A stretch of DNA of 64,000 nt from a virus (taxonomy: Duplodnaviria > Heunggongvirae > Uroviricota > Caudoviricetes), in the IMG/VR virus record IMGVR_UViG_3300045988_003641, positions 25,067 to 89,066 of that record; one strand, 5' to 3'. Below are positions 27,395 through 28,440 of this stretch, piece after piece. A program made the translations under genes and the position numbers. The number at the start of each line of letters is the position of its first letter. Position 1 is the first letter of the stretch. The notes beneath the pieces were generated by a model. It saw only the letters and a program-made list of their open reading frames with translations, was not told the origin of the DNA and ran no database searches.

Positions 27395-27835
27395 TTAGAA
27401 AGGTTTTCTACGTTGCTTGTTAATGTTAGCTTTCATAGCAGCTAAATGGTTTTGCTGTTCAATTAGTCGTGAACGTTCTTGATGGCTAAGTACCATAGTG
27501 TTCACATTCTCAATCGCTTGAGTGGCTTGCTTTAAAGCACGACCAATCTTACCAGACATTTTACGTTTTGCAATAGTTGCTTGATGCTTAGGTTCAACCA
27601 CACGATAACCAACACCCATTGAAGCAACCAGATAAATCTTCTCTTCTTTAAGAAGCTTCTCAATAAACTTCTCAAGTCGATTTAAGCGTGTAAGTGCGTA
27701 AGCTTTCATTTCATCTTCGTACTTAACAATGTCACCTTGATAAGTTGGCTTCACAATACCTAAGAAGGTATCCATCTCAGAGTGTGATACAGTGTCACCG
27801 TAACTAAACTTTGCTGCTAATGCTTTTGTATTCAT
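27395..27835 (-). CDS. hypothetical protein (cassette gene 2)
   Basis: 146 aa, basic C-terminus; no motif recognised. Confidence 0.4.
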   Translation of the reverse strand: MNTKALAAKFSYGDTVSHSEMDTFLGIVKPTYQGDIVKYEDEMKAYALTRLNRLEKFIEKLLKEEKIYLVASMGVGYRVVEPKHQATIAKRKMSGKIGRALKQATQAIENVNTMVLSHQERSRLIEQQNHLAAMKANINKQRRKPF

Positions 27836-27837
27836 AA

Positions 27838-28440
27838 TTAAACGTTACCTTCTGAAATAACTTCTACAGAAAAACGACCAAAGCGTGGACGCCAATCACC
27901 TACACCACAAAGGTTACCAGCATTTTCCAGAACCATCAGAAGTTCCTCTCTGGTGATTTGCTCTTCATCGAACATCAAACCAAACTCTACAGACCAGTCA
28001 CGGAAGATTGGACGGTAACTCATAACTCGTGCTGTACCAATCTTAACAGACTTAGCATAGATAAAGTCTGGATTCTTAGCAAGTTCTTGTGGGTTTGCTG
28101 GACAGTTCTTGATAGTCATTGGGAAGACTACATCTGTCAGCATAATGGCTCGGTCAATTACCTTACCAAGTTTGTTGAGTTTTGCACCAGACTTGATACA
28201 AGCCTCAATCATCTCACCGTTCATAACAAAACCTAACTGCTCATCGTAGTAACAGGAAGTTACTAGTTGGCTTTCTGCTAAGAGCGCATAGTCTTCGTCA
28301 GTCTTTTTACGTTTACTGGACAGAGACTTGTGATATTTTGTCAGAGGGTTTAATGGGTCTGACAACGTATCGTTATGGCTCAAGAAAGGACGAGTACCAG
28401 TGATTTTGATATTTAACAGTTTCATAGCATTTAGCTCCAC
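27838..28440 (-). CDS. hypothetical protein (cassette gene 1)
   Basis: 200 aa; glycine-rich C-terminal motif [14 protein letters not shown]; no confident family assignment. Confidence 0.4.

Follow-up and report, generated by a model that had tools for sequence, protein, structure and literature searches.

The minus strand of the window, by which we mean the whole 64-kb stretch of DNA that was analyzed, carries at positions ~26970-28823 a functional unit of two protein-coding genes and five arrays of pentanucleotide repeats. This unit is larger than the segment at 27395-28440 that an earlier note on this DNA had singled out as a two-gene cassette insulated from its neighbours by the repeats. 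The repeats are instead guide-RNA genes (vrRNAs), and are parts of the system. Gene and RNA names used here are those of VIPR (Viral Interference Programmable Repeat), described in two 2026 bioRxiv preprints (10.64898/2026.04.26.720920 and 10.64898/2026.04.26.720927). Reading along the minus strand, two vrRNAs (up1 and up2) are followed by vipr, vap1 and three further vrRNAs (dn1 to dn3), with the following features:

28796-28823, minus: sigma-70-type promoter, TTGACA-N16-TATACT (11 of 12 matches), upstream of up1, up2, vipr and vap1
28768-28807, minus: 8-bp inverted repeat, GGTGAGTA ... TACTCACC, with arms at 28807-28800 and 28775-28768, the left arm overlapping the -10 element
28626-28765, minus: vrRNA up1, with leader 28765-28727, tract 28726-28662 (13 units, several without GG) and tail 28663-28626
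28501-28622, minus: vrRNA up2, with leader 28622-28594, tract 28593-28534 (12 units) and tail 28535-28501
27838-28425, minus: vipr, 195 aa, 22 kDa, predicted ancestral-RAMP guide-binding protein, matching PDB entry 36pp
27395-27835, minus: vap1, 146 aa, basic (pI 9.9), winged-helix-like by prediction, accessory protein
27361-27383, minus: intrinsic-terminator-like hairpin with a TTCG tetraloop, stem AGCCTCTTCGGAGGCT and a T-run, 3' of vap1
27241-27362, minus: vrRNA dn1, with leader 27362-27335, tract 27334-27275 (12 units) and tail 27276-27241
27090-27241, minus: vrRNA dn2, with a long leader 27241-27181, tract 27185-27126 (12 units) and tail 27127-27090
26970-27086, minus: vrRNA dn3, with leader 27086-27058, tract 27057-27003 (11 units) and tail 27004-26970

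The base composition and the genes of the window are indicative of a virulent Felix O1-like myovirus, and genes for DNA polymerase, ligase, DHFR, thymidylate synthase and tail proteins lie near the locus. A megablast search with positions 26800-29000 matched 258 phage records, of which nearly all belong to Felix O1-like phages with Escherichia, Salmonella, Shigella or Citrobacter as hosts; the relatives that we inspected are Ounavirinae (Felixounavirus or Suspvirus). The closest match is phage dune (92.6% identity), in which both protein genes are annotated as "hypothetical" and the flank partly as "repeat_region". Elsewhere in this neighbourhood, a 171-aa ORF (31079-31594, minus) lies directly 3' of the DNA polymerase gene (31591-34320, minus), which it overlaps by 4 nt, and its counterpart in dune is annotated as a putative HNH homing endonuclease.

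The promoter is the top sigma-70 match within 24-32 kb of the window, and is kept in SUSP1, Felix O1a and BPS15S6. The earlier note had correctly recognized this promoter and the inverted repeat over its -10 element; it had, however, assigned the promoter to the two protein-coding genes, and the same promoter is also upstream of up1 and up2. The arms of the inverted repeat (GGTGAGTA and TACTCACC) are retained in SUSP1 and in relatives that lack vipr, even where the -10 element differs (TATACT or TATGCT), and they may constitute an RNA element or, as a guess, an operator. The TTCG hairpin and its T-run had also been noticed before, and are present at 27383-27361. This terminator separates vap1 from dn1, dn2 and dn3, for which no separate promoter was identified. 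A leader motif, AAGAGGGTCTTTTAA, was considered as a general phage promoter, but this idea was rejected because the motif is confined to the VIPR locus.

Scanning both strands of the window revealed exactly five period-5 YNNGG arrays, all of which are on the minus strand and at this locus, compared with 0-1 such arrays in 20 shuffles of the whole window. Repeat searches recovered the period-5 tracts and leader/tail modules of ~107-140 nt, and no repeat-spacer array. The vrRNAs share a plan that consists of a leader hairpin, 11-13 YNNGG units and a pseudoknotted tail of ~36 nt. Leader hairpins are of two types, TTAAAAGGTCTTT..AGGGTCTTTTAA or CATCACTTAAGAG..TTTTTAAGTGATG, and may serve as a processing signal. 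The dn2 leader (27181-27241) has an insertion of ~22 nt in its loop relative to the same leader type in up1 and SUSP1. Directly preceding each of the five tracts is a hairpin of 12-20 bp. In all tracts except up1, the GG dinucleotide is present in 11 or 12 units of the 11-12, whereas ~5 of the 13 units of up1 are without it (TAATG, TGCAG, TGAAG, TATAA and TAATG).

The tails belong to three sequence types of equal length, and covariation supports an H-type pseudoknot in which stem 1 pairs alignment columns 3-6 with 17-20 and stem 2 pairs columns 9-15 with 28-34. Across 10 distinct tails, both sides change in 9 of 11 pairs, and 89% of the pseudoknot cells are paired, a share that falls to 28-40% if the pairing partners are shifted by 1-3 columns. 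Searches of Rfam at E<=1 returned no family match in 26800-28900. Some guides are common to other phages (dn1 is shared with dune and up1 with LF82P5) and the others differ. The NN positions differ between phages despite flanks that are 92-96% identical, which fits the description of "hypervariable NN".

Both ORFs on which the earlier note was based exist in the window. The upstream ORF was first listed as 27838-28440 (minus, 200 aa) with a GTG start at 28440, but an ATG at 28425 is the likelier start (195 aa), because a GGAG lies 9 nt ahead of it and because both the PDB chain and GenBank annotations concur with it. This protein had been regarded as having no assignable function. A search of PDB sequences gave a single decisive match, however, to the published "SUSP1 Vipr protein" (36pp; E 1.7e-127, full length), and the gene product is 97.4% identical to that of the SUSP1 gene by tblastn. 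We took from the cryo-EM preprint the residues of the G-loop, thumb, RRM and helical bundle that are implicated in reading GGY and holding DNA, and all 13 of those compared are kept (H17, K33, R39, E71, M72, K82, G87, K88, R138, C173, D177, W178 and R179). The position called "T175" in the preprint is V175 both in this Vipr and in the PDB sequence. Neither Vipr nor Vap1 has a match in Pfam, NCBIfam or PADLOC, and in PHROGs they match families of unknown function alone (phrog_4652 and phrog_5926).

The glycine-rich segment at the C terminus, which the earlier note had loosely likened to G-rich loops of RAMP-type proteins, is present, and is predicted to be the RAMP G-loop. It contains the conserved D177, W178 and R179, which contact GGY bases according to the cryo-EM preprint (of 10.64898/2026.04.26.720920 / 10.64898/2026.04.26.720927). 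That this Vipr is itself a RAMP relative is probable by analogy with the structures of SUSP1 Vipr in the preprints. The earlier note was also correct, in essence, in guessing that the repeats beside the gene are what the protein acts on, although, as judged from SUSP1 Vipr in the preprints, the substrate would be RNA pentanucleotide repeats and not hairpins. Overall, the original interpretation of the locus is partly supported.

The second gene begins 3 nt past the vipr stop codon, and its product is 98.6% identical to that of the gene downstream of vipr in SUSP1, by which we assign it as vap1; vap1 enhances VIPR silencing (10.64898/2026.04.26.720920 / 10.64898/2026.04.26.720927). A word-index search for Vap1 homologues gave just the cluster at 90% identity, and an exhaustive HMMER search revealed the wider family. 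Remote Vap1 homologues also adjoin vipr homologues, and the synteny of vipr, vap1 and arrays extends to metagenomic contigs at 36-44% identity. One such contig (ERZ27271168 k141_3454055; L020 1052-1495) has a distant vipr-vap1 pair (44% and 36% identity), followed by three GGC-rich pentamer arrays, whose hairpin or pseudoknot-like tails differ from one array to the next. This arrangement suggests that the plan of VIPR loci is conserved well beyond the SUSP1 clade.

According to the preprints, Vipr is an early-branching RAMP whose protomers assemble into a polymer on vrRNAs, each of which has 9-16 YNNGG units and a conserved tail (10.64898/2026.04.26.720920 / 10.64898/2026.04.26.720927). For the SUSP1 system, they report formation of an RNP, ~100-nt vrRNAs that co-purify with Vipr, binding of double-stranded DNA, and repression (10.64898/2026.04.26.720920 / 10.64898/2026.04.26.720927). 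The locus in the window shares with SUSP1 VIPR (type II; PDB 36pp) the Vipr and Vap1 proteins (~97% and ~99% identity), the promoter, gene order, terminator, leader hairpins, YNNGG tracts and three tail types, and also the satellite family that is its predicted target. It differs in that SUSP1 has one upstream vrRNA, as against two here (one of them degenerate), in the ~22-nt insertion in the dn2 leader, and in that none of the four SUSP1 guides equals any of the five guides found here. The phages also differ, in that the genome studied here is of Felixounavirus type and SUSP1 is a Suspvirus.

Guides of the SUSP1 clade converge on a satellite that has tape-measure and baseplate genes in common with the phage (10.64898/2026.04.26.720920 / 10.64898/2026.04.26.720927). 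A blastn search of complete E. coli genomes with the downstream vrRNA array gave no match, and satellites were therefore located through the shared tape-measure and baseplate genes. Tail genes of the window match 477 complete E. coli genomes. When one satellite (L008) was used as the query, 565 of 5426 complete E. coli genomes matched at least in part, and 14 covered >=80% of it. The island is ~11 kb long, mosaic and bounded by serine recombinase genes, and is inserted between yciI and tonB, at a DUF72 gene near yecD, or at mdtG. Genes that the satellite has in common with the phage fall in window positions 11072-14151. The satellite baseplate protein is 81% identical to that of the window (93% at the nucleotide level over 558 bp), and the tape-measure proteins are 33% identical. 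The tape-measure gene of the phage contains a perfect 54-nt tandem duplication (12678-12794; 2.2 copies, 100% identical). In 3 of 13 satellite copies (L006, L015 and L017), there is a vrRNA belonging to the satellite, with a covarying pseudoknot tail and without vipr.

To compare guides with these elements, we recoded each guide as xNN, following the published 1-nt-skip rule, and scanned it on 13 E. coli satellite loci (L005-L017, 220 kb), in which the best matches of all five guides fall. The up1 guide matches 23 of 28 NN positions in the satellite tape-measure gene of 8 of the 13 satellites, and its units 2-11 are perfect (10 consecutive units, 20/20 NN). The dn2 guide fits the satellite gene for a large serine recombinase (L008 13552-13587) at 20 of 24 positions, and 10 internal units are perfect. 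The dn1 guide (20/24) matches an intergenic region upstream of a conserved gene of ~705 nt (L008 8251-8286 and others), and dn3 matches in the same region, at 20/22 in L013 (7540-7572) and at 19/22 in L008 and L014. The dn1 and dn3 sites are 28 bp apart and on the same strand (L008 8190-8286; L013 7540-7636), and may form a double roadblock. Satellite sequence that flanks these two sites has CTTTAAGAG/TTTTAA motifs resembling vrRNA leaders. The remaining guide, up2, matches 19 of 24 positions in the tape-measure gene of L009 and L016, with units 1-8 perfect, but this score is not above that of unit-order shuffle controls, and its assignment to the satellite tape-measure gene is tentative. Exact-pattern scans of metagenome and genome contigs for a better up2 target gave nothing, and a similar viral scan yielded two unrelated contigs, which is at chance level.

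For each of the five guides, a skip of 1 outscores skips of 0, 2 and 3, and every guide but up2 beats all 40 of its unit-order shuffles. Computed from coordinates, the skipped bases fall at codon third positions for up1 and dn2 and not for up2. No site in the window reaches >=80% for any guide; at the site of the phage's own tape-measure gene that is homologous to its target, up1 scores 13 of 28. Matches range from 79 to 91% of NN positions, and never reach 100% among the 13 satellites sampled, with mismatches concentrated in the units at either end. In up1, the first four degenerate units still have NN that fit the target, and lie within the 10-unit perfect run. Perturbation of GGY abolishes silencing according to the preprint (10.64898/2026.04.26.720920 / 10.64898/2026.04.26.720927). 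Either the loss of GG is tolerated in up1 or its decay is very recent.

Sequence homology, conserved residues, the anatomy of the vrRNAs, covariation in the pseudoknot, code matches in the satellite and absent self-matches lead us to propose, with a probability of about 93%, that this Felix O1-like phage carries a type II VIPR system, of the SUSP1 clade, whose five guides are aimed at an E. coli satellite. All features that define type II VIPR and lend themselves to in silico checks are found here. From sequence, we infer that the guides of this phage are expressed and repress the satellite.

The steps by which this could happen all come from the two preprints on SUSP1 Vipr, which is ~97% identical to the protein encoded here. 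Five vrRNAs of ~100 nt would be made from the locus, each with its tract capped by the 3' pseudoknot, and Vipr protomers would polymerise along the tract, one per unit. The G-loop and thumb would grip the GGY bases and leave the variable NN free to pair with double-stranded DNA, skipping every third target base. The resulting R-loop triplex would block transcription, and Vap1 would enhance silencing. The predicted targets are the satellite tape-measure gene, the integrase-type recombinase gene and the intergenic region upstream of the ~705-nt gene, and the phage would thereby silence a parasitic satellite during infection.

A different view of the targets is that the VIPR system is real, but that its main natural targets are elsewhere (rival phages, other VIPR systems or host genes), such that the satellite matches are partial or fortuitous. 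This view could draw on the up2 match, which is not significant, and on the mismatched first and last units. In addition, the sampled satellites are all from E. coli, and relatives of the phage also infect Salmonella, Shigella and Citrobacter. The preprint reports vrRNAs against other VIPR systems (10.64898/2026.04.26.720920 / 10.64898/2026.04.26.720927), and an orphan guide in Felix O1, described below, matches vipr. Nonetheless, four guides have perfect runs of 9-10 units in a single family of 11-kb elements within 220 kb searched, the scores of four guides are reached by no unit-order shuffle, and the up1 and dn2 targets in coding sequence are in wobble phase. Independently, the preprint placed 18 of 20 targets of the SUSP1 clade on the same satellite (10.64898/2026.04.26.720920 / 10.64898/2026.04.26.720927). 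We consider it unlikely that the main targets are elsewhere, and favor the satellite as the target of this VIPR system.

The system is already known, since solved structures of a ~97%-identical protein have been published, and the window adds no categorically new system. What it offers is an independent replication, with a different guide set, of three claims of the preprints, which concern the code with its skip of 1 nt, the pseudoknot in the tail and satellites as targets. VIPR has been put forward both as a new and minimal way in which RNA guides the recognition of DNA and as a possible ancestor of the RAMP effectors of CRISPR, and there is value in spotting VIPR loci in raw sequence.

By the classification of the preprints, the VIPR of a Pseudomonas fulva prophage is also of type II, and has Vipr, vap1, vrRNA arrays and an R-loop triplex. 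This system, which we liken to ours by its description, differs in being carried by a temperate prophage and in targeting lysis-lysogeny regulators of a resident prophage. Class 1 CRISPR-Cas (the Cas7, Cas5 and Cas6 RAMPs and Cascade) is alike, according to the preprints, in its RRM core, G-loop and thumb, and in polymerising on a guide RNA with periodic base flipping. In contrast, a CRISPR array of identical repeats and ~30-nt spacers is absent here. No cas1, cas2 or nuclease gene was recognized among the ORFs and annotation of 24-32 kb, where the annotated neighbours are a ligase, a putative HNH endonuclease, DNA polymerase, DHFR, thymidylate synthase and hypothetical proteins. Unlike a CRISPR guide, the VIPR guide pairs discontinuously, through 2 bases in each 5 of the RNA and with 1 base in each 3 of the target skipped, and VIPR is phage-borne, has no PAM requirement and belongs to no Cas family by sequence. 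Apart from the RAMP relationship, which comes from the structures in the preprints, the locus lacks the defining features of CRISPR-Cas. In ecological terms, there is a likeness to vibriophage ICP1, which carries a canonical type I-F CRISPR-Cas system that is directed against the PLE satellite, degrades DNA and acquires spacers. In both cases, a lytic phage has an RNA-guided system with guides against a chromosomal satellite parasite, but VIPR binds and silences. To our knowledge, VIPR has no adaptation machinery.

At >=90% identity, Vipr and Vap1 are each found in ~118 phage records, out of the 258 that match the surrounding region, and ~140 related records are without the cassette. This presence in ~118 of 258 related records indicates that the cassette is accessory, as the earlier note had supposed. 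Such a distribution bears on two other explanations of the locus. In one, the locus is a decaying or inactive relic, in which the genes are intact but the guides, up1 at least, are dead and the system is being lost. The ~5 of 13 up1 units without GG, the absence of the cassette from more than half of the related phage records, and the direct repeats flanking the genes, which ease deletion, would all be consistent with decay. However, neither ORF is disrupted and their products share 97-100% identity with proteins in the ~118 phage records, GG is present in 11 or 12 units of the other four tracts, the degenerate up1 units keep NN that fit their target, and the third downstream vrRNA of SUSP1 (dn3), which is expressed, is equally degenerate. 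We therefore view a dead relic as highly improbable.

In the other explanation, the repeats are iterons or a replication origin and the proteins are replication accessory factors. The placement of the cassette between the DNA ligase gene and genes of nucleotide metabolism, with ligase, DNA polymerase, DHFR and thymidylate synthase genes nearby, is in keeping with such a role, but neither protein matches a replication family in Pfam, NCBIfam or PDB, and the cassette is dispensable in many relatives, rather than invariant among them. The repeat periodicity, tail covariation and target matches are also specific to the VIPR model. A role in replication, the outcome that the earlier note had named as contrary to its proposal, is effectively refuted, and we retain the interpretation of the locus as a VIPR system directed at satellites.

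Traces of VIPR are found in relatives that lack the two proteins. Only 280-420 bp lie between the ligase gene and the gene for a gp86 homologue in Felix O1a and BPS15S6. This stretch is without vipr or vap1, and retains the VIPR promoter together with one vrRNA or two, all of them complete. In such vipr-less relatives, the promoter is followed directly by a vrRNA. This orphan architecture, in which an upstream leader is combined with a tail of the last type, is what would be left by recombination between the repeated modules. A 101-nt orphan vrRNA is present in 39 phage records, including that of Felix O1; phages with orphan vrRNAs include Felix O1, FO1a, phiWec172, SP22 and BPS17L1.

The top match in the window of the Felix O1a orphan guide is inside vipr (27926-27958, minus; codons 157-166), where it matches 19 of 22 positions in wobble phase, a score reached by 0 of 200 shuffles. 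Against the dune allele of vipr, the same guide is perfect in 10 of 10 units, and a guide variant in BPS17L1 is perfect in 10 of 10 units against the SUSP1 allele. Guide variants thus track vipr alleles (Felix O1a with dune, and BPS17L1 with SUSP1). The orphan could be an "anti-VIPR" guide that, in a mixed infection, would load into the rival's Vipr and direct it at the rival's own vipr-vap1 operon, and would act as a counter-weapon that needs no protein; we hold this idea to be possible, at somewhat less than an even chance. Alternatively, the orphan might be left over from a guide that targeted its own phage, the gain of which selected for loss of the cassette, or from a guide that once served in autoregulation. 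In the text and supplement of the preprint, we found no reference to an orphan anti-vipr guide, and a vipr-matching orphan guide may go beyond the published literature. If true, orphan guides against vipr would represent a new layer of phage-phage conflict.

In BPS15S6 (L019 1570-2010), two well-preserved orphan vrRNAs are located between the ligase gene and the next gene, and no Vipr homologue from this phage is among the tblastn matches listed. One of its guides matches 20 of 24 positions, with a perfect run of 9 units, in a DNA methyltransferase gene of the satellite (L008 4281-4316). Among close relatives of phage VpaE1, the cassette is present in VpaE1 itself (NC_027337) and in two "ev" derivatives (LR699048 and LR597658). 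The VpaE1_ev78 record (LR597663) matches 27% of the region and has the Felix O1-type orphan vrRNA, which suggests that the cassette has been lost or replaced by recombination among close relatives.
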